Below are positions 1-31,555 of a DNA stretch of 34,964 bases, piece after piece. Under the pieces are notes generated by a model. That model had not been told where the DNA came from and did no database searches. It was given only the letters and a program-made list of their open reading frames with translations. Every line of letters starts with the position of its first letter. The stretch's first letter is position 1. The stretch comes from an uncultured Desulfobacteraceae bacterium (GTDB taxonomy: Bacteria > Desulfobacterota > Desulfobacteria > Desulfobacterales > JAABSP01). The stretch lies in contig CAYNGG010000004.1 of the NCBI GenBank assembly GCA_964396575.1, positions 1 to 34,964 of the forward strand. Direction: 5' to 3'. A program made the position numbers and the translations under genes.

Positions 1-2667
1 GGCGAGGGCTTCTTTCAGGACGGCTTCAGCGGTGATCATCTTTTCGGCCGGCGGTGTTTTGTCCTTGGTTCCCGTTCCCGTTCCCGTTCCTGATCCGGTT
101 CCAGGTCCACCGCCTCCTGGTTCTTCTCCACCGCCTTCACTTTCCCCGCCCTCCGTTCCGGTTTTTCCTTTCTCATCCGGCTTGGGCTTCGGCGGGGGCG
201 GCCAGATCTGGTTCTCTCTGGCGTAAGCGGTGGTCATCACCACCGACCGTTCGTCGATTTGGATTTCCGTCCACGGCTCGCCCCGTCCGCAGAACAGGTC
301 CCCCTCTCGGTAAACGAGCTCCCCCGCCTCGATCCCCTTCCGGATGCCCTTGATGAACACATCGTTGCCCACCAGCATGGGCAGGGCCGGGTTCCGATGG
401 TATTCCGCCCGGAGAGCCGCCGTGGTGATGATGCCCTTTTTGAGCGGCGTTTTCTCCCGGATGAACAGGGGGGAGTCGGGCTCGTCATCCGGCTTCCGGA
501 GCTTGTTGATGCCCTGGAGCACCCGGACCACCTGCTTCTGGCCGTCGCCGGGGTTGGCCGAGGCGTTCTGGACGTCCACCACCGTGTGGCCAAGGTCCAC
601 GTCGGCCCCCTCAACCCGGTCCCGGGATGGATAGAAGACATGGCGGTAGGCTTGCTGGACGGCGATCGCCAGTTGTTGCTCGGATGTTCGGTACCACTCA
701 TCGAGCCGGTCCTGCTGGTGCCGGGCCAGGTCCTTGCGGCGTTCCGGGTCCCGCAGGGCCGACAGGGCCAGACGGCGGACCATCTTTTTTTTCATCTCCT
801 CTTTTTTCAGGGCATCCACCGTCACGAAGACGAGGTTGTTCCGGTTTTTCCGGACATCCCCGCCGGCCCCTTTTCGTTTGAAGAGCTTGCGGATGAGGTC
901 CGGCAGTGCCGTCCCTTCGCCCGAGACCTCCATGGCGTCGTAGCTGATCACCGCCAGATGGGGTTTCCCGTCCCCCGTGTCGTCCGGGATGTCGTTGGGG
1001 ATGTTGGGAAACGAGATCATCTGGAAATCCTTGCCGGCGAAGATGGATTTAATCCGGTCGTTGAGCCCCGTCCGGACGTCCCCGCCGTCCACCTGTTTTT
1101 CCTGGCGGCTCACCATCTGAGTCAGATTGGCTTCGGTGGAAAACCGCAGGGGGGCGCTGGCCCGGTCGTCCAGGTAAGAGGACGCCTGGACGAACCGGCG
1201 GACCGCGTCGTCGATGAAGCTGATGTCGGTACCCGGAGAAAGGAGGGCGTAGCGGAGCTCCTTTTGGGTCAGCCCCTTGAGGTCGTTGTTGAAGGCGAGG
1301 GTGTGGAAGAAGACGGCCCGGGCCACATAGGACCCGTAGGGCGGCAGGCCGATGTAGTGGGCGGCATCGAGCTCCTGGGCCAGCGAGGGCTGGTCCCCTT
1401 CCACGGCCGCGATGTCGGCCTTTAAGGCCGGAACAAAAGCCCGCTGGCCCAGCTTGGTCACGATCTCCTGCCGGATCGCCTGGGCCGCCGGGTCGATATG
1501 GTGGAGATGGATCGCATAGGCGTCCGACGGCTGATCAGCCCACAACCGCTCAACCGTCCGGGCCAGAAGCCGGAGCATCCCCCGGACCCGCTGGAAATGG
1601 ATCAGGGTGGCGGTCTTCTCCTTGAGGGTCTGGATCAGCTCGGGATGGAGCGGATAACCGTCTCGGAACGCATCTTCCCGCATATCATGAGCCCCGACGG
1701 CGGGCAGATGCTCCCGCTGGTCCTCCCACAGCTTCCGATAGGCCGCGATGATCTCTTCGGACCGGCCGTCGTCGATACTGGTGAAGAGCCGCCGCCGGAG
1801 AATCCGGACCGTCTCGTCCTCCTCGGTGGGGTCCAGGAGCGTGGCCTTCCGAGCCGATATACTTTCGGCCTCCTCCATGCAGTCGGCGATGAACTGGTTC
1901 TCGTCGCCGTAAGCGTCGGTGGCCAGCTTGTCCTTGCCGATGGCCAGGGTGTAAACCAGGGCCGCGTCGGGCGTGGCTTCCACCGCCTTGAAGAGCCCGG
2001 TCAGAAAGGCGGTCAACTGGCCGCCGGCCTGAGCCCGGTCCCGGGCCTTGAGCTTCCGGAGGTAGATGGAAAGCTCGTCGATGAGAATGAGAGCCGGGGC
2101 GCCGCCAAAAAGCTCCCGGATGGTCTCCGCTCCGGGGGCCACGCCGTCCTCGTCGCTTTTCCGAACCCGGGCGTAGCCCTCCCCGCCGGCCAGGGCATGA
2201 GCGATCTCGCCCCAGGGCGTGTAGGCCCGGAGCCCGTTGCCCAGGGACCGCCCATTGGCCGGGTCGGCGTTTTCCCCGTCAAAGGCCGCGATCCGGACCC
2301 CGGCCGCCGGCAGGAGAGCCGGATCGATGAATTCATCGACGTTTTGGACCCCCGGCATCCCCCGGGCCGCATGGGTCAGGGCGATGAGGGCGTGGGTTTT
2401 GCCGCCGCCGTAATTGGTGTCGAGCCGGAAGATCGACGCCGCTCCCCCGCCGTCGCCCCGGAGCCGCCCGCAGATATTTAACAGCAGGTTCCGGAGCCCT
2501 CGGGTCGGATGGGTATTGGCGAAAAACCGGACCGGGTCCCGGTACTCCTCCGGGGCATCCCCCCGGAGCACCTGGGCCAGATCGGCCGCGAAATCCGCTT
2601 CCGTAAGCAATCCCTTGCGGACATCTTCTCTCGGTGTGCAGACATCAAACAGGGTGGGTAACGCCAT
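1..2667 (-). CDS. DUF499-family (COG1483-like) anti-phage-associated P-loop ATPase, N-terminal 889 codons; C-terminus lies beyond the left edge
   Basis: Absent from the ORF track because no stop lies in the window. Hand translation from the ATG at 2667-2665 (AAAGGAG about 10 nt upstream) gives MALPTLFDVCTPREDVRKGLLTEADFAADLAQVLRGD...SIFRLDTNYGGGKTHALIALTH, with P-loop GGGKTH. I checked the frame as open at 1-480 and about 1490-2667. Plus-strand shadow ORFs 259-1425 and 1498-2481 share its codon boundaries, as expected for a high-GC minus-strand gene. Confidence 0.75.
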   Translation of the reverse strand, partial: MALPTLFDVCTPREDVRKGLLTEADFAADLAQVLRGDAPEEYRDPVRFFANTHPTRGLRNLLLNICGRLRGDGGGAASIFRLDTNYGGGKTHALIALTHAARGMPGVQNVDEFIDPALLPAAGVRIAAFDGENADPANGRSLGNGLRAYTPWGEIAHALAGGEGYARVRKSDEDGVAPGAETIRELFGGAPALILIDELSIYLRKLKARDRAQAGGQLTAFLTGLFKAVEATPDAALVYTLAIGKDKLATDAYGDENQFIADCMEEAESISARKATLLDPTEEDETVRILRRRLFTSIDDGRSEEIIAAYRKLWEDQREHLPAVGAHDMREDAFRDGYPLHPELIQTLKEKTATLIHFQRVRGMLRLLARTVERLWADQPSDAYAIHLHHIDPAAQAIRQEIVTKLGQRAFVPALKADIAAVEGDQPSLAQELDAAHYIGLPPYGSYVARAVFFHTLAFNNDLKGLTQKELRYALLSPGTDISFIDDAVRRFVQASSYLDDRASAPLRFSTEANLTQMVSRQEKQVDGGDVRTGLNDRIKSIFAGKDFQMISFPNIPNDIPDDTGDGKPHLAVISYDAMEVSGEGTALPDLIRKLFKRKGAGGDVRKNRNNLVFVTVDALKKEEMKKKMVRRLALSALRDPERRKDLARHQQDRLDEWYRTSEQQLAIAVQQAYRHVFYPSRDRVEGADVDLGHTVVDVQNASANPGDGQKQVVRVLQGINKLRKPDDEPDSPLFIREKTPLKKGIITTAALRAEYHRNPALPMLVGNDVFIKGIRKGIEAGELVYREGDLFCGRGEPWTEIQIDERSVVMTTAYARENQIWPPPPKPKPDEKGKTGTEGGESEGGGEEPGGGGPGTGSGTGTGTGTKDKTPPAEKMITAEAVLKEALA

Positions 2668-2870: not shown

Positions 2871-3028
2871 TCCCATCCCCCCTTGCCCGCCCCGCCGAAT
2901 TGATTTATAGTCCCATCCCTTGTGTTGGGGAATAGGGAGCCAACCGATGACGATGGATGGGATCAGGTGAGACCTCCGAGGTTTCCAGAGTGTTGGAAAC
3001 CTCGGAGGTCTAAGAACGATGGATGGGA
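2871..3028. promoter_or_regulatory. Cluster of four copies of the 8-mer TCCCATCC (two forward, two inverted) in the radical SAM leader; possible operator set
   Basis: TCCCATCC occurs at 2871-2878 and 2911-2918. Its complement GGATGGGA occurs at 2955-2962 and 3021-3028. I noticed only one other copy in the window (9685-9692). Confidence 0.4.
2970..3011. repeat. Perfect 18-bp inverted repeat (hairpin, 6-nt loop) flanked by 13-bp direct repeats
   Basis: AGACCTCCGAGGTTTCCA (2970-2987), loop gagtgt, TGGAAACCTCGGAGGTCT (2994-3011). ACGATGGATGGGA is repeated at 2950-2962 and 3016-3028. The second copy ends 1 nt before the ATG at 3030. No T-tract follows on either strand. Confidence 0.9.
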
Positions 3029-3029
3029 C

Positions 3030-4340
3030 ATGAAAATACTTTTAATCAACCCCCCGAACAGCGGGCGGAGCATCCCCGAGGAGGAATACGGGATCGAGAC
3101 CGTCAAGCTGATCTTCCGGGGCGAGCCCCTGGCCCTCGAGGTTCTCGCCGGGAACCTGAACGGGCAGGATGTCCGGATCGCCGACCTCAAGGTCCGGCCC
3201 GACTCGTTAGAGGCCGAGCTGGCCGATCTCGCCCCGGACCTCGTGGGGATCACCGGGATGACCTGCGAGGCCAACGCGGTGTTGAAGATCGCCGAAACGG
3301 TCCGGGACCAGACCGGCGCGACGGTGGCCGTGGGCGGACATCACGCCTCGGCCGACCCGCCCTTTTTCAATCATCCGGCGGTGGATTACGTGGTGGTGGG
3401 TTTGGGAAAGGCATCGTTTGCGGAGCTGGTGGCGGCATTGGAGACCGGCGGCGACCCCGGAGAGATCCCGGGCGTGGCCCGGACCCGGCCGGGCGGGGAG
3501 ATCCAATGGACCCCTCGCCGGTTCAGCCCCGCCGATCTGGTCGATAACCGGGCTCCCCGCTACGACCTGGTGGCGTGTCACCGGGACCAGTATGTCATGA
3601 GCGGGGTCGGGGGGAAGACCGGGTACGTGGTTTCGGCCCACGGCTGCACTCACCACTGCACCTTCTGCTGCGTGCCGTCGGTCACCGGCGGCCGGTATCT
3701 GGCCCATTCCCCCGAAGCCGTGGTCCGGGACATCGGCCTGCTGGGGGAGGTTCCGGCCATCCGCCTGGCCGACGCCAACACCTTCGGCGACCCGGTTCAG
3801 GCCGAGGCCCTGGCTCATCGGCTCTTGGATGCCGGGCTCGATAAGCGGATCGTGGCCGACGTCCGTGCGGACACGGTGGTCCGTCACCCGGAGCTGTTCG
3901 AGCTCTGGCGTCAAGCCGGGCTGGCCGCGGCGGTGATCGGGTTCGAGGAGATCTCCGACGAGGGCCTCCGGGTTCTGGGCAAGGGCTGCGACACGGCCGC
4001 CAACCATCGGGCGGTGGAGATTCTCAAGGGGCTCGGCATCCGGATTATCGGCGATTTCATCGTCTCCCCGGATTACACCGAGGCCGACTTCGACCGCCTC
4101 GAGCGGTACATCGGGGACATGGCCATCGATCTGCCCATCCCGGCGGTTCTGACCCCGCTTCCCGGCACCCCCCTGTTTCGCCGGCTTCGGGACCGGATCA
4201 CGGTCACCGACCTCGACTATTACACCTTTACCAACGCCGTCGTGCCCACCCGGCTGCCCGAGCGGACCTTTTACGAGGTCTATTCGGGGCTGCTCGGCCG
4301 GTGCCTGGCCCGCGGCCATCAGCCGTCAAACTCAAGCTAA
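3030..4340 (+). CDS. B12-binding-domain (class B) radical SAM enzyme
   Basis: ORF track 2922-4340. I prefer the ATG at 3030 (MKILLINPP..., a typical N-terminus for a cobalamin-binding domain). The CX3CX2C motif is present in GCTHHCTFCC. The stop overlaps the next start (TAATG). Confidence 0.85.
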   Translation: MKILLINPPNSGRSIPEEEYGIETVKLIFRGEPLALEVLAGNLNGQDVRIADLKVRPDSLEAELADLAPDLVGITGMTCEANAVLKIAETVRDQTGATVAVGGHHASADPPFFNHPAVDYVVVGLGKASFAELVAALETGGDPGEIPGVARTRPGGEIQWTPRRFSPADLVDNRAPRYDLVACHRDQYVMSGVGGKTGYVVSAHGCTHHCTFCCVPSVTGGRYLAHSPEAVVRDIGLLGEVPAIRLADANTFGDPVQAEALAHRLLDAGLDKRIVADVRADTVVRHPELFELWRQAGLAAAVIGFEEISDEGLRVLGKGCDTAANHRAVEILKGLGIRIIGDFIVSPDYTEADFDRLERYIGDMAIDLPIPAVLTPLPGTPLFRRLRDRITVTDLDYYTFTNAVVPTRLPERTFYEVYSGLLGRCLARGHQPSNSS

Positions 4341-5482
4341 TGGATGCCTATATCACCGACCTGGCCGCGTTTCTGCCCAACGAACCGGTGGGCAACGACG
4401 AGATCGAATCGGTCCTGGGACGGATCAACCACGTCTCATCCAAGACCCGACGGATCGTCCTGAAAAACAACGGAATCAGGAGCCGGTACTATGCCATCGA
4501 CCCGGCTACCGGCCGACTGACCCACACCAACGCTCAGCTCACCGCCGAGGCCATCCGCCGGCTCTGTCCTCACCCGGACTTTTCGGTGGAACGGATCGAA
4601 TGTCTCTGCTGCGGGACCACCAGCCCCGACATCCTCTTTCCCGGCCACGGCCTGATGGTCTTGGGCGAGCTTGGCGTTCCCGAATGCGAGGCGGTCTCGA
4701 TGTCGGGGATCTGCATCTCCGGGATGAACGCCCTGAAATATGCCTGCTTAAGCGTAGCGGCCGGGGATTCGGCCAACGCGGTGGCCACGGGGTCGGAGCT
4801 GTCCGGCTCCTTTATGCGGGCTCCGTTTTTCGTCCCCTTTCTCGCCGATGATCCGGCTCTGGAAAACCGCCCCATCAAGGCCTTTGACGCCGATTTTCTC
4901 AGATGGATGCTCTCCGACGGCGCCGGGGCGGCTTACGTGGTCCGGGACCGCCCCCCGGACCGAGCCGCGCTTAAGGTAGAATGGATCGAGACCGTCTCCT
5001 ACGCGGGTCGGATCGAGACCTGCATGTACGGCGGGGGGGTGAAAAACGAGGACGGGTCGGTTACCGGCTGGCGGGCGATCGACGAGATCGACCCCGCACA
5101 GGCCCCTTACCGGTTCTGCGTCCGGCAGGACATCCGGCTCCTGGATCGGGAGATCGTCCGGACCATGGGCTGGGCCCTCCGCCGGGCCGCGGACAAGCAC
5201 GGGCTGGAGCCGGAATCGGTGGACTGGTTTCTCCCCCACTACTCATCAGCCTACTTCCGGCCGAAGTTCATGGATGAGATGGCCCGGATCGGGTTTACGG
5301 TCCCCGAGGACCGGTGGTTCACCAATTTGCCCGAGAAGGGGAACACCGGGTCGGCGGCGATCTTCATCATCCTCGAGGAGCTCTTTCATTCGGGACGGCT
5401 GACTCCCGGCCAGCGGATTCTCTGCTTCATCCCGGAAAGCGGCCGGTTCTCCCACTGCTTCATGCTCTTGACCGCGTGCTGA
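4340..5482 (+). CDS. KAS III (FabH)-like condensing enzyme
   Basis: ORF track 4301-5482. The ATG at 4340 (MDAYITDLAAFLP...) overlaps the rSAM stop. A Cys/His/Asn triad is recognisable: SGICISGMNA, LPHYSS, GNTGSAA. Confidence 0.8.
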   Translation: MDAYITDLAAFLPNEPVGNDEIESVLGRINHVSSKTRRIVLKNNGIRSRYYAIDPATGRLTHTNAQLTAEAIRRLCPHPDFSVERIECLCCGTTSPDILFPGHGLMVLGELGVPECEAVSMSGICISGMNALKYACLSVAAGDSANAVATGSELSGSFMRAPFFVPFLADDPALENRPIKAFDADFLRWMLSDGAGAAYVVRDRPPDRAALKVEWIETVSYAGRIETCMYGGGVKNEDGSVTGWRAIDEIDPAQAPYRFCVRQDIRLLDREIVRTMGWALRRAADKHGLEPESVDWFLPHYSSAYFRPKFMDEMARIGFTVPEDRWFTNLPEKGNTGSAAIFIILEELFHSGRLTPGQRILCFIPESGRFSHCFMLLTAC

Positions 5483-5495
5483 TCGCTGACCGTAA

Positions 5496-6518
5496 TCAGG
5501 CGCAAACCGTGATCCGCCCCCACTGCCCGTCAGCCCCCGTCCGGAAACAAAAAAGCCTTGCCGAAGGGGTATCCAGGGGCGTCGTCCGACCTGGCTCATC
5601 GGGTGAAAACAGGCACTCCGCCCCGATGGAGAGCGCCGCGATGGCCAGGTCAAAGGCCGATCCCACCGGAATCCGCCCGTAGAGCCGCTCGTAGGATACC
5701 CGTCGAGCATCCGGGGGAAGCGCGCCGGCCGGGTCCGGCGCCCCCTCCGCCACTAAGTAAATCCCGCCATCCCGATCCGAAAATCCGGAAACGGTCTCGG
5801 CCCGGCCGGTCTCGATGGACTCGATCCGGGCATGGGGGCGTTCCCCGCCGGCACCCGGCGTGAGGACGAAAAAGGCCCCGCCCTCGCCCACCACCGGTGT
5901 CTCGTCCGCCGTCCCGCTTCGATGGCGATGGTAGGCCGCCACATAGGAAAAGGCGTCCACCCCGCCGACCAGCACGGCATCGCAGCGGCCTTCCCGGAGC
6001 CAGAGGTCGGCGGCCGACAGGGCGGTGACCACCGACATGTCGAGCTGGTTGATGGTCAGGCTGGGGCCCGGGGCGCCGAAAAAGGCGGCCAGGTGAGCGG
6101 CGGCCGCGTTGTGAACCGAGTTGGAAAACCGGATGGGTGAGATCGGCTCGGGGGCGACGGTGAGCCCCTCGAAGTCGAAGGTGTTGCAGGTGGCCCCGTA
6201 TCCGGTGCCCACCAGAATTCCCAGGCGGCCGATCAGGGGGTCCATCAGGCCTCGGTCCCGGGCGTCGGCCAGGGCGAGGTGGCCGGCCAGCAGGGCCATC
6301 CGGGAAAAGGGATCGGTCCGGCGGAGAAAGCGTCGGTCAGCCACCGCCTTTAACGGCGCTGTGTCGGCTCGAAAGCCGGGCACCGTTACTTGCCCGGTCA
6401 GCGTGTCGATAACCACCGGCTCAGGGGGCGGCGGGCCGGTCCGGAGGGCGTTCATCAGGTCGGCTTGACCGGTCCCGAACCCGCCGATGCACCCGATGCC
6501 GACGACGGCCAGGGTCAT
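5496..6518 (-). CDS. KS-like protein lacking the active-site Cys (chain-length-factor-like partner)
   Basis: 340 aa, MTLAVVGIGCIGGFG... with a thiolase-fold N-terminus. The position equivalent to the KS catalytic Cys reads LTINQLDMSVVTAL. Its start overlaps the upstream KS stop (ATGA at 6515-6518). Confidence 0.7.
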   Translation of the reverse strand: MTLAVVGIGCIGGFGTGQADLMNALRTGPPPPEPVVIDTLTGQVTVPGFRADTAPLKAVADRRFLRRTDPFSRMALLAGHLALADARDRGLMDPLIGRLGILVGTGYGATCNTFDFEGLTVAPEPISPIRFSNSVHNAAAAHLAAFFGAPGPSLTINQLDMSVVTALSAADLWLREGRCDAVLVGGVDAFSYVAAYHRHRSGTADETPVVGEGGAFFVLTPGAGGERPHARIESIETGRAETVSGFSDRDGGIYLVAEGAPDPAGALPPDARRVSYERLYGRIPVGSAFDLAIAALSIGAECLFSPDEPGRTTPLDTPSARLFCFRTGADGQWGRITVCA

Positions 6519-7714
6519 GCCTTCGCCTCCCCGCCGCCAAGGACCAAGACGGAGTTGGATCCGCCAAAGGCCAGGGTCTGGGAGAGGGCGACATTCCCGG
6601 AGATCGGAGTGACCCGGTCAACCACGCCGCACGGCGTGGCCGGCAGGTCAGGGTCCTGTTGCGAGAACCCGGCCGAGGCCGGCACCCGCCCGGCCGCCAG
6701 GCAGGCCAGAGTGAAGGCCGCTTCCACGGCCCCGGCCGCTCCGAGGGTGTGGCCGGTGTAACCCTTGGTGGAAAGAAAAGGGACCCCCGGAAACCGCTCG
6801 GCGAATAATTCGGCCTCGATGGCGTCGTTATCCCGGGTTCCGGTGCCGTGGGCGTTGATAAAGGCGAGGTCCGCCGGGTTGATCCCGGCCGCCTGGATGG
6901 CCTCGTCAACGGCCAGGCGGAGCCCCCGGCCGTCCGGGGACGGGGCGGTGAGGTGATAGGCGTCCGATGCGTTGCCATAGCCCAAAACCCGGCCCCGGAG
7001 ATTCCAAGTCCCCGAACCGTCGGCCGCCAGAACCATCATGGCCGCCCCTTCGCCCAGGTTGAGCCCGTTCCGGCGGGCGTCAAAAGGCCGGCACGGTTCC
7101 TCGTCGGTGTTCATCAGGGAGATGAACCCGTTATAGGTGATCTCGTAGAGCTCGTCGGCTCCCCCGGCAATGGCCAGGTCGCACAGACCGTTGCGAATCC
7201 AGGCGGCGGCCAGCCCGATGGCGTCGGACCCGGCCGAGCAGGCGGTGACCGTCGTGGCTAAGGGTCCGCTCAGGTCGTATTCCCGGGCGATGGCCATCGC
7301 CGGGCTGGTCTCTGAGAATCGCCGCGCCGGCTCGATGTAGCCGTGCCTCAGCAAGGCCTGGCCATCCGTTTCAGAGGCGGCCCCGCCCACATTGGTTCCC
7401 ACGCAGACCCCGACCCGCCGCCCGGTGAGAACCGCCCGGGTCAGCCCGGCATCTTCGATGGCCTCCCGAGCCGCGGCCAGGGCCATCCGCGGGGTCCGTG
7501 AGGGGGGCGGCGGGCCGCGGAAGTCGGCCGGGTCGAAAAACGGGTCGGGCAGCTCGAAGACCGGGTGCGAGCCACGAACCGGCGTGGCAAACCGGGTCGG
7601 AAGTCCATGGCGGCGGATACCGGCAAAGAGGCTTGCCATGCAGGCGGGCAGGGTCGGCCCGGCCGCGCAAAGGCAGCCGATGCCGGTGATGGCGACGGGG
7701 AGAAGGGGCCTCAT
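6515..7714 (-). CDS. Beta-ketoacyl-ACP synthase, FabF/KS II-like, catalytically intact
   Basis: 399 aa with the Cys-His-His triad motifs VTACSAGSDAIG, SDAYHLTAP and INAHGTGT. There is an ATGA overlap with the ACP gene stop. Confidence 0.85.
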   Translation of the reverse strand: MRPLLPVAITGIGCLCAAGPTLPACMASLFAGIRRHGLPTRFATPVRGSHPVFELPDPFFDPADFRGPPPPSRTPRMALAAAREAIEDAGLTRAVLTGRRVGVCVGTNVGGAASETDGQALLRHGYIEPARRFSETSPAMAIAREYDLSGPLATTVTACSAGSDAIGLAAAWIRNGLCDLAIAGGADELYEITYNGFISLMNTDEEPCRPFDARRNGLNLGEGAAMMVLAADGSGTWNLRGRVLGYGNASDAYHLTAPSPDGRGLRLAVDEAIQAAGINPADLAFINAHGTGTRDNDAIEAELFAERFPGVPFLSTKGYTGHTLGAAGAVEAAFTLACLAAGRVPASAGFSQQDPDLPATPCGVVDRVTPISGNVALSQTLAFGGSNSVLVLGGGEAKA

Positions 7715-7965
7715 CCGGCCTGTCGGGCCTCGATGAATTCGGCCAGGGTTCGGATCGACTGGAGTGCCGGCCGGCCTTCCTTCATGTTGCGGATTTCCAC
7801 CCCGAAGTGGTGCTTGACCTGGAAGACCAGCTCCACCGCGTCGATGGAATCCAGGCCGAAGGCGTCGCCGAAGAGCGGGTCGTCGTCCCCGATGTCCTCG
7901 GGGCTCACATCGTCTAAGTCAAGCTCCCGGACGATGATTTCCTTGAGTCGAACCTTGATGTCCAT
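7711..7965 (-). CDS. Acyl carrier protein
   Basis: 84 aa and acidic, with the phosphopantetheine attachment motif FGLDSIDAVEL. Confidence 0.85.
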   Translation of the reverse strand: MDIKVRLKEIIVRELDLDDVSPEDIGDDDPLFGDAFGLDSIDAVELVFQVKHHFGVEIRNMKEGRPALQSIRTLAEFIEARQAG

Positions 7966-7969
7966 GGGG

Positions 7970-8995
7970 TCAGCCTTTCACCGGTGCCAGGCCGTTTCGG
8001 AGGGCGATGTCGAGGTCCCGGTAAATGGCGGTTTCCAGGTCCGCGCAGTCCCCGAGGATCTCGCCCAGGGCCGCATAGGTCTCGGACTCCGATGCCCGGC
8101 CCTTGCAGATCCGGGACCCGGCCACCGCGAAGTCCCGCCACCGGTCCCCGGCCCCGGTCATCCGAACCGACAGGGCATGGAGGGCATCAGAAGATAGAAG
8201 GTCCCCGGCTTCCTGGAGAAAGGCCGCAAAGAGAAACCGGAACCCGCCGCCGCCGGTGCCGATCTCCTCCTGCATCCGAATCAACTGGCCCAGGTAGAGG
8301 GTCGCCCGGTCTTCCCCCAGCCGGGCCGGCCACCGGGGGACGACTTTGGCCAGGTGACGGATGCCCCGGACCCCTAGAAAGGGTCCCGGTGCCCGGAGCA
8401 TGGTCCGGGCGGCCTCCCGCAACCCGGCCACAGCGGCTCCGGCCAGGTCGGGGGCCTCGGGGACGGCGGCCACCGTGTACATGTACCCCTTGGGCGGCAT
8501 GGGGCCCCTGGCGAACCTCGCCCGTTCGAGGGACTCGGGCGGGCAGCGCACCGGGTCCGGAAAGACCGGATCACTGATCAGATAGTCGCCGTCAACCTTG
8601 TCGAAGACCACGATGTTGTGCATGTTGAAGTGAAACCGGTACCGCCGGGGGAAATAGGAAAGCCAGTAGGCCCCGGTCCGGCATCCCACCGGAAATCCCT
8701 CGGCCAGCTTCCGGTCAAGCGCCGCCATGGCCCGGCCGGGGCGGCGGAACTTTTCCCGTTTCAGCTTGACCCCCAGGCGTTTGGTGACCCGGCCCATGAT
8801 CCCGCCGGTCCGGATGCGAAAGGCCGTCAGGGGAAGGTGGTTCAACCGGACAAAGGGGAGATAGCCGAAGAAGATCCCGGAGCCGATCCCGAAGGCCATG
8901 GCCTCGGTCAAGGGGATGCCGTAATGGGCCAGAAGGTTGGCGGTGACCCCGGTCTCGCAATGGGCCGACTGATGGTGGGCAAACGGAACGGACAT
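7970..8995 (-). CDS. BtrH_N / DUF4872-family protein (papain-like putative ACP-dependent acyltransferase or peptidase)
   Basis: ORF track 7970-9034. I prefer the ATG at 8995 (MSVPFAHHQSAHCETGVTANLL...), which resembles the conserved BtrH N-terminal HCxxG start. A later FNMHNIVVF histidine is present. The family call is from memory of the domain. Confidence 0.7.
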   Translation of the reverse strand: MSVPFAHHQSAHCETGVTANLLAHYGIPLTEAMAFGIGSGIFFGYLPFVRLNHLPLTAFRIRTGGIMGRVTKRLGVKLKREKFRRPGRAMAALDRKLAEGFPVGCRTGAYWLSYFPRRYRFHFNMHNIVVFDKVDGDYLISDPVFPDPVRCPPESLERARFARGPMPPKGYMYTVAAVPEAPDLAGAAVAGLREAARTMLRAPGPFLGVRGIRHLAKVVPRWPARLGEDRATLYLGQLIRMQEEIGTGGGGFRFLFAAFLQEAGDLLSSDALHALSVRMTGAGDRWRDFAVAGSRICKGRASESETYAALGEILGDCADLETAIYRDLDIALRNGLAPVKG

Positions 8996-9000
8996 GGCGG

Positions 9001-9411
9001 CTACATCGGCTCCGGTTCGTCCGGAACCCGGCAAAGGTCCGGGACGCTGAGGTTGAAAACCCGGGCGTACCGGGCCAGGATCTCCGGCTTGAGGCGGGCA
9101 AAGGGCCGCGGTTTCAGGTGGCGACGGACCCGCCAGCGGGAGAGGCCGGCGTAGTCGGCCAGGAGTCCGGGGTTCATGAGATGCCGGACCATGTGGTAGG
9201 CCAGCGGGCTCCTCTCCCCGGCCCGGACCGCCCGAACCGCCTCGTCGATCTCGGCGGTGATCACCTCCCAGGCCTGGGCGTTGGCGACGTTTTTGGGCTC
9301 CCAGCCGAGGCTGGAGACCTTGACGTACCGGCCCGTCTCGTCCACGGCATAGGCGATCTCCCGCATACCTTCGTTCATGCCGTCTTCCTGCGGCACATCA
9401 ATTGTTTTCAT
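9001..9411 (-). CDS. Small protein with C-terminal XRE-like helix-turn-helix; first gene of the minus-strand operon
   Basis: ORF track 9001-9507. I prefer the ATG at 9411 (MKTIDVPQEDG...) with GGAGA upstream. The C-terminal segment LLADYAGLSRWRVRRHL...ILARYARVFNLSVPDL looks HTH-like. No family recognised. Confidence 0.5.
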   Translation of the reverse strand: MKTIDVPQEDGMNEGMREIAYAVDETGRYVKVSSLGWEPKNVANAQAWEVITAEIDEAVRAVRAGERSPLAYHMVRHLMNPGLLADYAGLSRWRVRRHLKPRPFARLKPEILARYARVFNLSVPDLCRVPDEPEPM

Positions 9412-9478
9412 CCGTCTCCGTCCGCCCGCGTTTAAAATTCGATGTTGCCCGGTTCCGGGCTCCCCTCGAAAGCTTTTC

Positions 9479-9507
9479 AATATGGGCAAACTGATCGGAA
9501 AAGTCAA
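9479..9507 (-). promoter_or_regulatory. Candidate sigma70 promoter for the HTH-BtrH-ACP-KS-CLF operon
   Basis: Minus strand reads TTGACT (9507-9502), a 17-nt spacer, then CATATT (9484-9479), about 70 nt upstream of the ATG at 9411. Confidence 0.4.
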
Positions 9508-9534
9508 TATCTAGTGTTCATCCGATCTCCCCTC

Positions 9535-9601
9535 TCACGCCCCGCCAAATAGAGCCGCGTCACCTCCGGGTCGGCCAAAAGATCGGCGTCGGTTCCGGTG
9601 G
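9535..9601 (-). pseudogene. Decayed remnant of a livF-like 3' end
   Basis: By hand alignment, 57 of 67 positions plus a 1-nt gap match the 3' end of the intact livF (23528-23595), in the same orientation. It encodes ...TDADLLADPEVTRLYLAGR versus LivF ...TGADLLADPEVTRLYLGGA*. The 1-nt deletion removes the stop. Weak similarity may continue to about 9680. Confidence 0.6.
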
Positions 9602-15615: not shown

Positions 15616-18600
15616 ATGTCGCATATCACGGTAATCCACAATGCTTTGCAAGCCTTGGGCGCTGAGGTCACGGAAAAGATGGCCCAGCTCCTTCAGGGAG
15701 AGCCTGAAGACCAATTGCGTGGTCCCTTTGAAAGCTTCATGAAAGCCATCGCGGACGGATTCGGGGGGTTAATCGTATGTACCGGTGAAACCCCGCTCCC
15801 AGATCGAATTGGCCGTCCGGACTATGCGGTCCACTTGAACGATCAGCTCACCGGTTACGTTGAGCTCAAAGCGCCCGGCACCGGCGCTCTCAAGTCCCGG
15901 TTCAAGGGCCACAATCGAAAGCAATTTAAACGGTTTACAGCTATCCCCAACATCCTTTACACGGATGGCAATGAATGGGCGATCTATCGTGGGGGTGAGC
16001 AGGTAGGTAAGGCCGTCCGGCTGGTCGGTGATGTCAGCTCGGACGGCAAAGCAGCCGCCAACCGGGACGACGCGCAAAACCTCGAACGGCTTCTGTCGGA
16101 TTTCCTATCCTGGGCACCTTTTATCCCAACCGATCGTTCGGGCAGAATTGACCTCAAAGGATTTGCCGCCATGCTTGCCCCGCTGTGCCGGATGCTTCGA
16201 GATGACGTTGCCGATGCCCTTGATGCCTCATCATCGCCTCTCGTTGACATGGCCGCGGACTGGCGAAGCATCCTTTTCCCGGATGCGCCGGATGACCAAT
16301 TCGCCGATGCTTACGCACAGACGGTAACCTTTGCCCTGCTTCTCGGTCGAAGCGAGGGAGCCAACCCGCTGACGCTTAAAGCAGCCATCAACACCCTTCT
16401 GTCGAAGCACAGTCTCCTCTCTCGCGCGCTTGAAGTCCTTACCGACCCCGCCGCTCAAAGCGAGATCAAGGCTTCAGTGGACCTCTTGTTGAGGGTCATT
16501 GCCGCCGTGCCGCCCCGCACGCTTGCCTATCCAGAGGACCCATGGCTTTATTTCTACGAAGACTTTCTCGCCGTCTATGATCCAAAGCTGCGTAAGGATG
16601 CGGGAGCGTATTATACTCCCATCGAGGTGGTCCGGTATCAAGTGCGGCTGATAGACCACTTGCTCGTCAATCGCCTCGGAAAGCCTTTGGGGTTCGCCGA
16701 CTCCGGCGTCATCACACTCGATCCGGCCACCGGCACCGGCACGTATCTGCTTATGGTGATCGAGCATGCGCTCAGCCGGATTGAAAAAGAGCAAGGAGCC
16801 GGCGCGGTTCCGGGACAGGCTACGGCGCTGGCCCAAAACCTGTATGGCTTCGAGCTGATGGTTGGCCCGTATGCCGTCAGCGAGCTACGGATCAGCCGGG
16901 CGCTCCGGGACCGGGAAGCCGACCTGCCGGAAGACGGCATCAACATCTACCTGACCGATAGCCTCGAAAGCCCAAACGCCGAGCCCCAAACCCCTTTTCA
17001 TTTTTACAAGCCCATTGCCAAGCAGCATGCCAAGGCCCTGGAAGTCAAAAACAACATTCCGGTCATCGTCTGCCTGGGAAACCCCCCGTATGACCGACAT
17101 GAAGCGGCATCAGGCGAAAACCGGTCACGGACCGGTGGCTGGGTCAGATGGGGGGACACCGAGAACGCGGAAGATGCTATCCTGAAAGACTTCCGCGCCC
17201 CCGCCATTGCGGCGGGGCATGGCTTGCACGTCAAAAACCTTTACAATCTTTACGTCTATTTCTGGAGATGGGCTTTATATAAGGTCTTTGAGCACGAGAC
17301 GGCGCTCGGGCCGGGGGTGGTCAGCTTTATCAGCGCATCGAGCTATCTGGATGGCAGCGCCTTTTGCGGGATGCGTCAGCATCTGCGTGAAATCTGCGAC
17401 GAGATATGGATACTCGACCTGGGCGGCGAAGGGCGCGGCACCCGTAAAAACGACAATGTCTTTTCCATTCAAACGCCGGTCGCCATTGCGGTGGCCGTGC
17501 GGTACAAGGAAGCCGCCACCTCAAGACCCGCCGTGGTTCACTACTCACTGCTGGAAGGCGACCGTGACGCTAAGCTCGCCGCACTCGATGGTATCGATCA
17601 ATTCTCAAAAGTTGAATGGCGGGATTGTCCGGATGACTGGCAGGCTCCGTTCAGACCAGAAGGCATCGGCGGCTACTTTCAATGGCCGCCGCTGACCGAT
17701 CTCATGCCGTGGCAGCATTCGGGGTGCGAAATTAAACGAACTTGGCCGATATGCCACGACCCAAAGACATTGAAGGCGCGATGGAATGCTTTGATTAGAA
17801 CAAAAGACCGTGCATCGGCATTTAAAGAAACTCGGGATCGGGATATCCATTCAGAATGCAAACAGCTTTCAACTATTAAAAGCGATACTACCCCTATCAA
17901 CGAGTTATCATTTGACGCGCCGGTGCCTCCCGTTGTCCGATATGCGTTTCGGTCATTTGATCGCCAATGGGTCTTTGCGGACAACCGCTTGGGGGATTAT
18001 TTCCGCCCTCCGCTTTGGCGCACCCACGGGCCAAGCCAGGTTTACATCGCAAGCTCTTTGATTCTTGGCCTTGGTACCGGACCGTCATTGAGTGGCGCTT
18101 CATCAATTCCTGATAGACACTATTTTTCAGGAAGGGGCGGCAAAGACATCCTTCCCCTTTACAGAACCCAAGATGCCACCGAAGCGAACCTTCCGCCCGG
18201 CATCCTGGATTTGCTCACCAAGGTATATCATCGAAAGCTAACGCCGGAAGACTTCCTTGCCTATGTGTACGGCGTCCTGGCCCACCCCGCCTTTACCGCA
18301 CATTTTCATAAGGAGTTGGAAAGCCGAGAGCTTCGTGTGCCCATCACCAGGGATGCATCGCTTTTTGAGGCTGTCCGTAAGACGGGGGCGCGTCTTCTCT
18401 GGCTTCACACCTACGGTGAGCGTTTTGTGCCGAAAGGCATGAAACAGGGCCAGGTGCCACGGGGCGAGGCGAAATGCACCCGGGCGGTACCGGGTGATCC
18501 ATCCGGATATCCCGAAACCTTTGGATATGCCGAAGCCGATCAGACCCTTCGGGTTGGATCGGGCGAGTTTACCCCCGTTTCCCGCGAAGTCTATGATTTC

Positions 18601-18909
18601 GAGGTCTCAGGGCTCAAGGTTGTCCAGTCTTGGCTCAAATATCGGATAAAAAATGGGGCTGGCAAGAAATCTTCGCCGTTGGACGACATCCGCCCTGAAC
18701 GCTGGACCAGTCAGCACACGACCGAGCTGCTTGAGCTGCTGTGGGTGCTTGAGGAGACGGTCAAGGTTTATCCGGAGCAGGAAAGGCTTCTGGAAGCAGT
18801 TGTAAATGGGGACTGCTTACTGGCTGACGAGCTCCCAGATGTCTCCCCTGACATGCGGAAACCACCGCGGCCCAGGAAAGGATTGGAGAATTTGCAAATG
18901 TGTGATTAG
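15616..18909 (+). CDS. Single-polypeptide Type IIG/IIL R-M enzyme (MmeI-like N-terminal nuclease, gamma-class N6-adenine MTase, Type ISP-like C-terminal target-recognition region)
   Basis: 1097 aa. D69...E83-x-K85 (GRPDYAVH...GYVELKAPG) is placed like the MmeI D-EXK motif. MTase motifs are AYYTPIEVVRY, LDPATGTGTYL and CLGNPPYDRHE. The C-terminal segments RYAFRSFDRQWVF and DILPLYR recall Type ISP/IIG TRDs. GC is lower than in the flanks. Confidence 0.8.
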   Translation: MSHITVIHNALQALGAEVTEKMAQLLQGEPEDQLRGPFESFMKAIADGFGGLIVCTGETPLPDRIGRPDYAVHLNDQLTGYVELKAPGTGALKSRFKGHNRKQFKRFTAIPNILYTDGNEWAIYRGGEQVGKAVRLVGDVSSDGKAAANRDDAQNLERLLSDFLSWAPFIPTDRSGRIDLKGFAAMLAPLCRMLRDDVADALDASSSPLVDMAADWRSILFPDAPDDQFADAYAQTVTFALLLGRSEGANPLTLKAAINTLLSKHSLLSRALEVLTDPAAQSEIKASVDLLLRVIAAVPPRTLAYPEDPWLYFYEDFLAVYDPKLRKDAGAYYTPIEVVRYQVRLIDHLLVNRLGKPLGFADSGVITLDPATGTGTYLLMVIEHALSRIEKEQGAGAVPGQATALAQNLYGFELMVGPYAVSELRISRALRDREADLPEDGINIYLTDSLESPNAEPQTPFHFYKPIAKQHAKALEVKNNIPVIVCLGNPPYDRHEAASGENRSRTGGWVRWGDTENAEDAILKDFRAPAIAAGHGLHVKNLYNLYVYFWRWALYKVFEHETALGPGVVSFISASSYLDGSAFCGMRQHLREICDEIWILDLGGEGRGTRKNDNVFSIQTPVAIAVAVRYKEAATSRPAVVHYSLLEGDRDAKLAALDGIDQFSKVEWRDCPDDWQAPFRPEGIGGYFQWPPLTDLMPWQHSGCEIKRTWPICHDPKTLKARWNALIRTKDRASAFKETRDRDIHSECKQLSTIKSDTTPINELSFDAPVPPVVRYAFRSFDRQWVFADNRLGDYFRPPLWRTHGPSQVYIASSLILGLGTGPSLSGASSIPDRHYFSGRGGKDILPLYRTQDATEANLPPGILDLLTKVYHRKLTPEDFLAYVYGVLAHPAFTAHFHKELESRELRVPITRDASLFEAVRKTGARLLWLHTYGERFVPKGMKQGQVPRGEAKCTRAVPGDPSGYPETFGYAEADQTLRVGSGEFTPVSREVYDFEVSGLKVVQSWLKYRIKNGAGKKSSPLDDIRPERWTSQHTTELLELLWVLEETVKVYPEQERLLEAVVNGDCLLADELPDVSPDMRKPPRPRKGLENLQMCD

Positions 18910-23364: not shown

Positions 23365-23467
23365 GTTTAAAATCCATTTTCATGACCGGGGGTGATGTGG
23401 CGCCCGCCCCGATCATGAGGGTTTACATTTGCTCTCAAAGTGGTAGCGGCATCCCGGCGCTTAAATT

Positions 23468-23527: not shown

Positions 23528-24238
23528 TCACGCCCCGCCCAGATAGAGCCTCGTCACCTCGGGATCGGCCAGAAGATCAGCGCCGGTCCCGGTCAGGCGG
23601 TTTTCCCCCAGCTCGAGGACGTAGCCCCGATGGGAGACCGACAGCCCCTTCCGGGCGTTTTGCTCCACCAGCAAAAAGGAGATCCCCTCACGGTTCATCC
23701 CGGCGATGGATTCGAAGATCTGGTCCACCACCAGGGGCGCCAGCCCGAGGGAGGGCTCGTCTAAGAGCACGAGCCGGGGGGAGACGATCAGAATCCGGCT
23801 CAGGGCCAAAAGCTGGCGCTGGCCCCCGGAGAGCTCCCGGCAGGGCCGGTCCCGGCGCTCCCCGAGGAGCGGGAAAGTCGCCACCGCCCGGTCGATTCCC
23901 TCCCGGAGCGCCCGGCGGTCCCGGACCCCCGTCCCGGCCATCTCGAGGTTTTCCATCACGGTCAGGTTGGGAAAGATGTTGATTCCCTGGGGGATGAAAA
24001 TGAGGCCCCGGTCGGCCTTGTCCCGGATGCTCAGGCGGGTGACGTCGGCGCCATCGTAGCGGACCGAGCCGGCGGTGGGGATGAGCTGGCCGGCCACGGC
24101 CCGGAGGACGGTCGATTTCCCGGCGCCGTTGGGACCGATGATGCAGACGATCTCCCCGCCGTCCACCGTCAGGCCGACGTCTTTTAAGACGGGGGTTTCG
24201 CCATAGCCGGCGGTGATGCCGTCCACCTCAAGCAACAT
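23528..24238 (-). CDS. livF: Branched-chain amino acid ABC transporter ATP-binding protein LivF
   Basis: 236 aa with Walker A GPNGAGKST, signature LSGGQRQLL, Walker B LVLLDEPS, and the LivF-type C-terminus ...DPEVTRLYLGGA. Confidence 0.9.
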   Translation of the reverse strand: MLLEVDGITAGYGETPVLKDVGLTVDGGEIVCIIGPNGAGKSTVLRAVAGQLIPTAGSVRYDGADVTRLSIRDKADRGLIFIPQGINIFPNLTVMENLEMAGTGVRDRRALREGIDRAVATFPLLGERRDRPCRELSGGQRQLLALSRILIVSPRLVLLDEPSLGLAPLVVDQIFESIAGMNREGISFLLVEQNARKGLSVSHRGYVLELGENRLTGTGADLLADPEVTRLYLGGA

Positions 24239-30547: not shown

Positions 30548-31555
30548 TCAGGCCTCCGGCGCGGGCTGAGCCATTTGCCAGGTCAAGAGGATGCCGCCCC
30601 AGGTGAACCCGGCCCCGAAGGCCGAGATCACCACCGGGTCTCCGGGGGAGAGGCGCCCGGCCGCATAAGCCTCGGACATGGCCATGGGGATGGTGGCGGC
30701 GGTGGTGTTGCCATACCGCTGGATGTTGATCATCACCTGATCGGGGCGGAGATTGAGCTTCCGGGCCACTGCGTCAATGATCCGGTAGTTGGCCTGATGA
30801 GGGATGAGGAGCTTGAGGGCGGCGGGGTCCACCCCGTTGCGGTCCAGCAGGCGGGCGGCGACATCGGCCATGGCGTTGACCGCGTGCTTGAAGACCACCC
30901 GGCCGTCCTGGTAAACGTAATGCCGGCGGGCATCGACCGTTTCGTGCGAGGCCGGCTCGATGGCCCCGCCGGCGGCGATGTAGAGATAGGGGGCCCCGGT
31001 CCCGTCGAGGTGGAGCTCGAAATCGGTGATCCCGGCGTCGTCTGAATCGGCCGGGCAGAGAACCACCGCGCCGGCGGCGTCTCCAAAGAGGATGCAGGTG
31101 TTCCGGTCCTGGTAGTCGGTAATGGCGCTCATTTTGTCGGCGCCCACCACGAGGACGCGGCGGTGTCGGCCGGCCTCGATAAACTGGGCTCCGGTGGTCA
31201 GAGCACAGAGGAACCCCGCGCACCCGCCGTTGATGTCGAACCCCCAGCACCGGTCCGCCCCGAGGGCGTCCTGGACGTAGGCGGCCATGGATGGCACCGG
31301 CCGGTCCGGGGTCACGGTGGCGACAATGACGAGATCCAGGTCCGACGGCGACACCCCGGCCCGGTCCAGGGCCATCCGGGCGGCCGGGACCGCCATCTCC
31401 GAGGTCCCCGTTTCGGGGTCGAGTATCCGTCGCTCCTTGATCCCGGTCCGGGTGGTGATCCACTCGTCGTTGGTGTCCACCATCCGCTCGAGGTCCGCGT
31501 TGGTCAGCTTTCGGTCCGGCGCAAAATGGCCGACTCCGCTAATAATCGCTCGCAT
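30548..31555 (-). CDS. fabH: Beta-ketoacyl-ACP synthase III
   Basis: 335 aa with DEWITTRTGIKERR and the Cys in NGGCAGFLCAL, His in IPHQANYRI, Asn in YGNTTAATIP. Its stop lies 1 nt from the pepN start. Confidence 0.9.
   Translation of the reverse strand: MRAIISGVGHFAPDRKLTNADLERMVDTNDEWITTRTGIKERRILDPETGTSEMAVPAARMALDRAGVSPSDLDLVIVATVTPDRPVPSMAAYVQDALGADRCWGFDINGGCAGFLCALTTGAQFIEAGRHRRVLVVGADKMSAITDYQDRNTCILFGDAAGAVVLCPADSDDAGITDFELHLDGTGAPYLYIAAGGAIEPASHETVDARRHYVYQDGRVVFKHAVNAMADVAARLLDRNGVDPAALKLLIPHQANYRIIDAVARKLNLRPDQVMINIQRYGNTTAATIPMAMSEAYAAGRLSPGDPVVISAFGAGFTWGGILLTWQMAQPAPEA

Follow-up and report, generated by a model that had tools for sequence, protein, structure and literature searches.

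Dialkylresorcinols (DARs) are membrane-active lipids, pigment anchors and signals, and the two-enzyme core of their pathway, DarB plus DarA, is regarded as settled. Here, we describe a seven-gene block in a DNA stretch of 34,964 nucleotides (the window; contig CAYNGG010000004.1 of assembly GCA_964396575.1, positions 1 to 34,964), which comes from an uncultured Desulfobacteraceae-labelled bacterium of the phylum Thermodesulfobacteriota whose fragmented genome is 96% complete and has a mean GC content of 62.8%. In this block, a gene encoding a cobalamin (B12)-binding radical S-adenosylmethionine enzyme (B12-rSAM) stands immediately upstream of darB, in the place that DarA takes in related clusters.

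Three kinds of described systems serve for comparison. The dar cluster of Azoarcus sp. BH72 (azo0283-0293; arcuflavin pathway) lists darK, darJ, darC, darE, darD, darB (DAR cyclase) and darA (aromatase) (PMC3949708). Like the window, it combines DarB, the acyl carrier protein (ACP) DarC, the ketosynthase (KS) DarJ, DarK with its N-terminal KS domain, the BtrH-like DarE and DarD, and it has no ketoreductase, dehydratase or enoylreductase. Its ATP-binding cassette (ABC) transporter genes belong to the cluster, whereas exporter genes lie on other contigs in the window's genome, and its aromatase DarA is found next to DarB, whereas the window's genome has no DarA and carries the B12-rSAM gene instead. 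The flexirubin clusters of Chitinophaga pinensis and Flavobacterium johnsoniae (PMC3992019) share DarB, DarG, DarH, ACP, KS and the KS partner with the window, with 34-53% identity and a matching relative gene order. The minimal DarABC/StlCDE systems of Pseudomonas, Photorhabdus and Eikenella (PMC13748660, PMC6836626) have in common with the window the triad of the DarB/StlD ketosynthase-cyclase and a dedicated ACP; their aromatase is DarA/StlC, and DarG, DarH and the KS/partner pair are missing from them.

Gene families in the window were assigned with Pfam and NCBIfam, defence models with PADLOC and RNA families with Rfam. On the plus strand, a class B B12-rSAM enzyme of 436 aa (3030-4340; Pfam B12-binding 7e-17, Radical_SAM 2e-13) precedes a 380-aa ketosynthase-cyclase of the DarB/StlD family, which resembles β-ketoacyl-ACP synthase III (KAS III) (4340-5482; NF005293, 525 bits, cut-off 450). 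The minus strand encodes, in the direction of reading, a DarG-family small protein of 136 aa (9001-9411; NF053536, 143 bits, cut-off 70; darD of Azoarcus), the BtrH-related acyltransferase DarH (open reading frame 7970-9034; NF053550, 439 bits, cut-off 300; darE of Azoarcus), a dedicated ACP of 84 aa (7711-7965; PP-binding 2.4e-10; darC), a FabF-like KS of 399 aa with N- and C-terminal ketoacyl-synt domains (6515-7714; darJ of Azoarcus) and a catalytically dead KS-like partner of 340 aa with the N-terminal ketoacyl-synt domain only (5496-6518; darK of Azoarcus). The start of DarH is probably the ATG at 8995, which gives 341 aa, rather than the TTG at 9034. All seven reading frames are intact at the positions first assigned to them, and the tight packing reported in the preliminary description is borne out by the sequence: the rSAM stop and the DarB start overlap as TAATG, ATGA overlaps link ACP to KS and KS to partner in the minus-strand operon, 4 nt separate DarH from ACP and 5 nt separate DarG from DarH, and the two operons converge with 13 nt between their stop codons (5483-5495).

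Three of these proteins, the StlD/DarB ketosynthase and the accessory pair DarG and DarH, score above the NCBIfam cut-offs for the DAR pathway. Against the narrower "exception" model for DarB (NF053539), the window protein reaches 440 bits, below the cut-off of 550, and still falls inside the DarB tree. The gene set thus corresponds to that of Azoarcus BH72 with the B12-rSAM added and DarA missing, so it is not an orphan cluster. The preliminary description had taken it for an uncharacterised orphan and had named a match to a characterised pathway as the result that would overturn this view; the NCBIfam assignments, the Azoarcus cluster (PMC3949708) and the synteny with flexirubin loci together amount to such a match. 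Its gene-by-gene reading agrees with the Pfam and NCBIfam assignments and the catalytic residues, its tentative analogy with DAR synthesis proved correct, and its idea that an acyl or β-keto chain is built on a dedicated ACP and passed to an acceptor was sound.

A search with DarH returned 584 relatives, and 80 loci were kept for neighbourhood comparison. The nearest relatives belong to metagenome-assembled genomes (MAGs) labelled Desulfobacteraceae (89% identity) and Syntrophobacteraceae (67%), and about 50 of the 80 loci are flexirubin clusters of Bacteroidota at about 48% identity. Across the kept loci, DarG, DarH, ACP, KS and partner recur with DarB both in Desulfobacterota and in the flexirubin loci of Bacteroidota. 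For the rSAM-type loci (17 plus the window, 18 in total), the conserved core consists of DarB, rSAM, DarH, DarG, an ABC ATPase, an ABC permease, ACP and KS/partner. We therefore regard the block at 2873-9511 as probably a dar sub-cluster of a flexirubin-type aryl-polyene/resorcinol lipid pathway, in which the rSAM enzyme finishes the DarB product.

The evidence for the exchange of DarA begins with the position of the gene. In flexirubin loci, DarA is a flavodoxin-like protein of about 300 aa encoded directly upstream of darB (for instance, L070:6215-7225), and the window's rSAM gene takes this position and is translationally coupled to darB. The gene order is rSAM-DarB-DarG-DarH-ACP-KS-partner in locus L012 and DarA-DarB-DarG-DarH-ABC-ACP-KS-partner in the DarA-type locus L034. 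The rSAM protein has the features of class B, with an N-terminal PF02310 domain (7e-17), PF04055 (2e-13) and a CX3CX2C core formed by C206, C210 and C213, which are invariant in 22 orthologues. Orthologues (47-69% identity) always adjoin darB.

DarA itself is missing from the window's genome. A profile hidden Markov model (HMM) built from 43 DarA sequences and run on all six translated frames of the genome had no match at E<=10, the F. johnsoniae DarA as query found nothing there at E<=1, and profile A2 likewise found none. In the leave-out control of the HMM, divergent DarAs from MAGs of anaerobe lineages were detected at 1e-71 to 1e-110. Full-length DarA is also absent from ten further rSAM-type genomes (nine of them outside the phylum sample described below), including the isolate Desulfobulbus rhabdoformis DSM 8777 (locus L036), a cultured carrier of the variant. 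Some rSAM-type genomes give weak DarA-like matches of about 230 aa (1e-16 to 1e-22); these were set aside as flavodoxin-like paralogues, which also occur in genomes without DarB. A side case is a DarA-like flavodoxin-type reading frame in a Desulfotalea MAG (G390/G443 C2:28342-28965; E 2.7e-17), which covers the N-terminal two thirds, holds one internal TAA and lies about 6.5 kb from an rSAM-darB pair. Genomes that lack DarB have similar weak matches, so this reading frame is probably a paralogue and not a remnant of DarA.

The two genes exclude each other wherever they were scored. Among 62 loci with DarB, the gene adjoining darB is DarA in 43 and the B12-rSAM in 17, with no locus having both; the two loci with neither belong to genomes that hold a full-length DarA on another contig and have no rSAM orthologue. 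Of 400 genomes sampled evenly from the phylum, 29 encode DarB. The gene directly upstream is an rSAM orthologue (47-61% identity) in 14 of these and DarA in another 14, and the remaining one shows a partial DarA where its contig ends; no genome has both and no genome has neither. No rSAM orthologue without DarB was found in the 400-genome sample. Each DarB genome tested therefore has either DarA or the rSAM enzyme, never both and never neither, and in the phylum sample roughly half of the genomes with DarB carry a dedicated B12-rSAM instead of DarA.

DarB, by comparison, is the same enzyme in both types. Its residues C125, H300 and N335 align with the Cys/His/Asn triad of FabH, as the preliminary description had stated for the KAS III-like protein, and are invariant in 67 homologues. 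A single alignment column is diagnostic between rSAM-linked and DarA-linked DarBs, and the active site is unchanged, so the intermediate should be the same carboxy-cyclohexanedione. The window's DarB gene is the only one of its kind in the genome. The window also has, at 30548-31555, a gene for an ordinary FabH (ACP_syn_III domains, 1e-28 and 3e-35). This protein, whose gene neighbours one for a peptidase M1, is the housekeeping KAS III and distinct from DarB.

In a DarB tree rooted with FabH, with Shimodaira-Hasegawa-like approximate likelihood ratio test (SH-aLRT) values as branch support, all rSAM-linked DarBs and the DarB of locus L009 form one clade (SH-aLRT 99) nested among DarA-linked sequences. 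This single clade means that the large complementarity counts reflect one switch from DarA to rSAM. Within the clade, identity falls to 51% for DarB and to 47% for rSAM; the rSAM-darB pair has been retained for a long time, and the rSAM enzyme is strictly dedicated to darB. Locus L009 (genome G438) is the only member of the clade without a B12-rSAM; its genome encodes a full-length DarA elsewhere, with no dar genes nearby (coordinates in G438: C148:9424-10308 and C91:13178-14311), which may reflect a reversal or re-acquisition of DarA, or contamination of the MAG. As a separate observation on the tree, contig L071 (CAMDRJ010000013.1), from a MAG labelled Klebsiella pneumoniae, bears a DarA-type dar cluster whose DarB is sister to the Desulfobacterota rSAM clade; this contig is likely misbinned.

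The proposed pathway would consist of four steps. In the first, the FabF-like KS, its dead partner and the private ACP would extend an acyl starter once with malonyl-ACP. Because no ketoreductase, dehydratase or enoylreductase follows, the product would stay a 3-oxoacyl-ACP, and the supply of this compound would explain why these three activities are unneeded. In the second, DarB would join the β-keto thioester head-to-head with a 2-enoyl thioester, through Michael addition and Claisen reactions, to give a carboxy-cyclohexanedione; the chemistry is known for the family, and its assignment here is predicted from family membership and the intact triad. In the third, the B12-rSAM would process this carboxy-cyclohexanedione in place of the flavodoxin-like DarA: a hydrogen atom would be removed beside the carbon that bears the carboxyl group, loss of CO2 and of one electron would follow, and the ring would tautomerise to a 2,5-dialkylresorcinol. 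In the fourth, DarH and its obligate small partner DarG would move an ACP-bound acyl group, which in flexirubin would be the aryl-polyenoyl chain, onto a resorcinol hydroxyl.

The unchanged DarB and the exclusive rSAM/DarA slot lead us to read the rSAM enzyme as the one that finishes the DarB product, and we consider it very likely that it is a DarA-slot enzyme acting on that product. Its reaction is a more tentative matter. HemN is a radical SAM enzyme that carries out an oxidative decarboxylation creating a C=C bond, and HemN versus HemF and BchE versus AcsF are pairs in which an oxygen- and flavin-independent radical SAM enzyme stands in for another enzyme class at the same oxidative step. 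BchE is in addition a non-methylating B12-radical SAM enzyme; the window's rSAM is weakly similar to it (120 bits, cut-off 481), and HemN has no B12 domain. We use these pairs as an analogy only. On their model, aromatisation of the DarB product by a HemN-type oxidative decarboxylation is the most likely reaction, although we give it slightly less than even weight. The substrate of DarA is the carboxylated cyclohexanedione, and decarboxylation accompanies its aromatisation (PMC6836626). The fuller proposal, in which a large family found only beside darB in Desulfobacterota would be a non-orthologous replacement of DarA working by radical oxidative decarboxylation, a type of reaction that is not known to have been described for cobalamin-dependent radical SAM enzymes, is put forward with somewhat greater reserve.

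Several points weigh against this interpretation. The complementarity rests on few events, namely one switch and one reversal, and the reversal is in a MAG with possible contamination. HemN-type chemistry requires no cobalamin. The closest solved structures and best-scoring families are mostly C-methyltransferases (MgmA at 4e-12, TokK, TsrM, HpnR). DarA is common in this anaerobic phylum, where 15 of the 29 DarB genomes have it, so that the rationale of an oxygen-free substitute leaves the switch unexplained; the idea that DarA needs oxygen and was for this reason replaced in anaerobes was rejected on the same count, and oxygen is probably not the driver here, unlike for the radical SAM counterparts named above. 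The presence of a second radical SAM enzyme with a SPASM domain at some loci means that more than one radical step may be involved. The sub-cluster lies apart from the other pathway genes in this genome, which means that operation of the full pathway is not implied, and the product of any rSAM-type cluster stays a prediction.

The resemblance to methyltransferases underlies the main alternative, in which the enzyme would be a C-methyl (or alkyl) transferase acting on the cyclohexanedione ring or the alkyl chain, giving a methylated, possibly non-aromatic product and dispensing with DarA. Methylases make up most of the class B radical SAM enzymes characterised so far, and the solved structures closest to the window protein are those of the glutamine C-methylase MgmA (9CCB, E 4e-12), which ranks first, TokK and TsrM. 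However, all similarity scores lie far under the family cut-offs: the best NCBIfam values are 157 bits for HpnR (cut-off 650), 120 for BchE (481) and 81 for the MCR glutamine methylase family (360), so the protein belongs to none of the characterised methylase families (HpnR, MgmA, TokK and others) as NCBIfam defines them. Moreover, non-methylating B12-rSAM enzymes are inseparable from methylases by sequence or structure (PMC12931638). The anti-correlation with DarA would equally fit alternative finishing enzymes, and DarB clusters without DarA, with uncharacterised products, are already known in cyanobacteria (PMC6836626). Yet a tailoring methylase is not expected to sit in the exact slot of DarA, to be mutually exclusive with it in all genomes checked or to give way to DarA in the single member of the clade that lost rSAM, and the unchanged DarB, DarG and DarH argue for the same kind of acceptor. 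We therefore hold methylation to be rather unlikely, and keep the finishing of the DarB product in the place of DarA as our preferred interpretation. Either outcome would matter: if the enzyme aromatises the ring, the non-methylating B12-radical SAM enzymes, which are poorly understood, would gain a new reaction, and if it methylates, these abundant sediment bacteria would be the source of a class of resorcinol or cyclohexanedione lipids that has yet to be described.

We found no paper linking a radical SAM enzyme with DarB, dialkylresorcinol or cyclohexanedione in the sense of an aromatase replacement, although the literature coverage was incomplete and this is weak evidence. The cluster type is known, and the rSAM-for-DarA variant is the new part, with the same weak evidence for its being unpublished.

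Other radical SAM genes occur in this context. The SPASM radical SAM (about 350-446 aa) is encoded directly upstream of the B12-rSAM-darB pair in L036 (15956-16999), L029 (16551-17567) and L031 (9797-10852), and divergently next to darB, without a B12-rSAM, in L009 (6728-8068). It belongs to a large family, with 1863 proteins at E<=1e-40, but the window's genome and most loci lack this enzyme. We regard it as accessory and not as the substitute for DarA. The copy in L009 was rejected as independent proof of a redox role, given the absence of the enzyme here and from most loci and the presence of DarA in the L009 genome. Among paralogues of the B12-rSAM, the nearest have 34-38% identity and come from genomes that lack DarB; five of their loci share no conserved neighbours and so gave no functional hint. 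Separately, loci L016, L018 and L020-L023 have DarG-DarH beside distant B12-rSAM genes (23-28% identity to that of the window) with no DarB within 10 kb, and these may represent a separate DarG/DarH-rSAM module.

The remaining genes expected for a flexirubin-type pathway are present in the window's genome on other contigs. In a comparison genome of the same genus (G001), the genes divergent from darG encode a 4HBT thioesterase, a Dak2/FakA-middle/DegV fusion, an ABC ATPase with an ABC-2 permease and an aromatic amino acid lyase. Genome G002 continues after the exporter and lyase with genes for an LpxL-type acyltransferase, an ACP and a KS, and its set of lyase, acyltransferase and exporter is contiguous with rSAM. 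The window's genome holds the thioesterase, the Dak2/DegV fusion, the exporter, the lyase, the acyltransferase and a second ACP/KS on contigs C477, C550, C465, C542 and C493; overlaps of 55 nt at the contig ends connect C477 with C550 and C542 with C493. Where compared, these genes are 86-96% identical to the copies of G001, and 58-80% identical to the acyltransferase, ACP and KS of G002. The lyase, the LpxL-type acyltransferase and the ABC-2 exporter, on C465, C550 and C542, are unlinked to the window in the present assembly. Of a full polyene-building set, which would also include a ketoreductase, a dehydratase and a 4-coumarate ligase, the searches covered and located KS, ACP and acyltransferase genes.

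Flexirubin synthesis starts with a tyrosine ammonia-lyase (PMC3992019). A lyase resembling this enzyme, the LpxL-type acyltransferase and the ABC-2 exporter are shared by the flexirubin pathway and the window's genome, and the lyase and acyltransferase also occur in the Flavobacterium flexirubin loci. Unlike the flexirubin producers, the host of the window belongs to an anaerobic Desulfobacterota lineage, has rSAM in place of DarA and possesses the Dak2/DegV fusion and the 4HBT thioesterase. FabZ-like dehydratases adjoin darB in Flavobacterium and are not in the window's block. In locus L019, the Dak2/FakA-middle/DegV fusion, which is similar to fatty acid kinase A plus B, and the 4HBT thioesterase (4501-6306 and 6303-6986) lie between darG and the ABC exporter, and the window's genome has its own copies on C550 and C477. 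These two proteins, which fall outside the described flexirubin and arcuflavin clusters, may activate or load an acyl or aryl acid.

Since the block is separated from these partners, it could also be read as working alone in this genome, releasing free dialkylresorcinols or cyclohexanediones as signals or antimicrobials, in the manner of Pseudomonas DarABC or of Photorhabdus, and not as a pigment anchor. Such free compounds are bioactive or signalling in other bacteria (PMC13748660, PMC4414361), and a rearrangement separates the block from the lyase, exporter and acyltransferase genes. Nevertheless, DarG/DarH and KS/partner/ACP are typical of flexirubin- and arcuflavin-type clusters and not of the minimal darABC, the partner genes are intact in this genome, with G001 counterparts that form one continuous stretch with darG, and the block may have become separated only recently. 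We consider this possibility quite improbable, and retain the assignment of the block to a flexirubin-type pathway.

As assembled, a rearrangement appears to have cut the dar sub-cluster from its partner genes. By blastn, window positions 2873-5484 correspond to C328 2886-5498 of G001 (91.7% identity) and positions 6532-9511 to C151 (88%). Homology to G001 ends sharply at 2873 and 9511, and the flanks outside this block differ. On the right, the flank in G001 consists of pathway genes, and the break falls within the 85-nt intergenic zone between the thioesterase gene and darG; on the left, it is an 804-aa protein without a known family, whose orthologue in the window's genome is on contig C20. 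The convergent layout of the window arose by inversion of the rSAM-darB pair and is the derived state. Each of the seven genes evolves under purifying selection (dN/dS of 0.08-0.28 relative to G001), and the block has a GC content of 66.6%, compared with the genome mean given above. In the position that darG takes in G001, upstream of the thioesterase gene and divergent from it, contig C477 of the window's own genome carries a second KS pair (146-2621; 419 and 493 aa, both with N- and C-terminal KS domains), which marks the other side of the rearrangement. Elsewhere, a dispersed repeat of about 56 nt (window 23370-23424; L019 1-56) recurs at many contig ends of the window's genome and of G001 (C5, C10, C132, C530 and others) and probably causes much of the assembly fragmentation; a match between a G001 contig end and window 23370-23424 was consequently rejected as a clue to synteny.

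A closer examination of the minus-strand proteins refines several assignments. The KS has the catalytic residues C159, H289 and H322 and scores 268 bits with PRK09185, below the cut-off of 407. In its partner, Leu stands at the Cys column, directly preceded by Gln, and both His motifs are missing, which makes the partner a dead KS and not a chain-length factor (CLF) of the Gln type. The pairing of an active KS with a partner lacking the nucleophile, as first described, therefore holds, but the likeness to the KS-alpha/CLF heterodimer of type II polyketide synthases does not, as the 340-aa partner is neither a full-length CLF nor has Gln at the Cys position. The ACP scores 66.6 bits with PRK09184, against a cut-off of 70, and has the serine motif LDSID.

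BtrH of butirosin biosynthesis transfers an ACP-bound acyl group to an acceptor. Like BtrH, DarH has a BtrH_N domain (8e-46) and an invariant Cys/His/Asp set (C13, H122, H126 and D142, in 79 homologues); unlike BtrH, it has an additional DUF4872 domain (2e-54), is always paired with DarG, and has a donor and acceptor that are predicted. DarG, which was first proposed to be a helix-turn-helix (HTH) protein, has zero Pfam matches. Its AlphaFold model has a mean predicted local distance difference test (pLDDT) score of 78.5, with the C-terminal half above 90, and Foldseek gives weak matches of this half to XRE/Cro-type HTH domains (E 0.003-0.1, target TM 0.6-0.76). The same list includes HppE and HEPD, enzymes in which this fold is a non-DNA-binding domain.

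Upstream of the rSAM gene, its leader holds a perfect 18-bp hairpin (2970-3011) that is flanked, in the region 2945-3030, by ACGATGGATGGGA repeats. This is a palindromic repeat of the repetitive extragenic palindromic (REP) type found throughout the genome, with 131 blastn-short high-scoring segment pairs counting both orientations and an estimated 60 or so copies across the contigs. As a genome-wide element, it was ruled out as a cluster-specific regulator, and a riboswitch or other RNA in the leader was rejected, given zero Rfam matches and the dispersed nature of the hairpin.

The cluster is placed between defence genes. To its left lies a DUF499/HmaC-type ATPase gene (1-2667, minus strand; Pfam DUF499 3e-34) and to its right a Type I restriction-modification (R-M) operon and a Type IIG enzyme (15616-18909, matching Type IIG enzymes in PADLOC), which agrees with the neighbours first reported, a DUF499 system and two R-M systems. 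This setting had suggested that the cluster might be cargo of a defence island, with a small-molecule or lipid-based anti-phage function, moving with these systems. However, PADLOC models gave no match for any of the seven cluster proteins. DarH is present in eight of nine genomes of the organism's family, the exception being only 73% complete, and in 8 of 31 other families of the order, while rSAM is present in all five family genomes tested. Identity of the cluster decreases with phylogenetic distance, from 88-92% within the genus to about 62-69% within the family. Neither flank in G001 is a defence gene, and the only DUF499 homologue of that genome is 31% identical and on a different contig. 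Co-occurrence with defence islands, which had been suggested as a check, is not seen either: no recurrent defence gene family stands beside the cluster in the 17 other rSAM-type loci.

The R-M segment is itself a compositional outlier. It begins at a decayed copy of the livF 3' end (9535-9601, minus strand; about 57 of 66 bases identical to 23528-23595), and the low-GC block bracketed by the two livF copies (about 9.6-23.5 kb) has GC values of 57.7% (7th percentile of genome windows) and 54.9% (2.5th percentile), far from the values of the genome and the cluster. Together, the conservation across the family, the G001 flanks and this low-GC, livF-bracketed block identify the defence genes as newcomers at the borders of an inherited cluster; on both sides they are strain-specific insertions or rearrangements. 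Location next to defence genes is thus no evidence of defence cargo, and with purifying selection acting on all seven genes, we judge that explanation to be exceedingly improbable. The protein encoded at 1-2667 fits the PADLOC HmaC model (4e-101) better than the generic DUF499 model; the left end of the contig truncates its gene and leaves the partner genes out of view.

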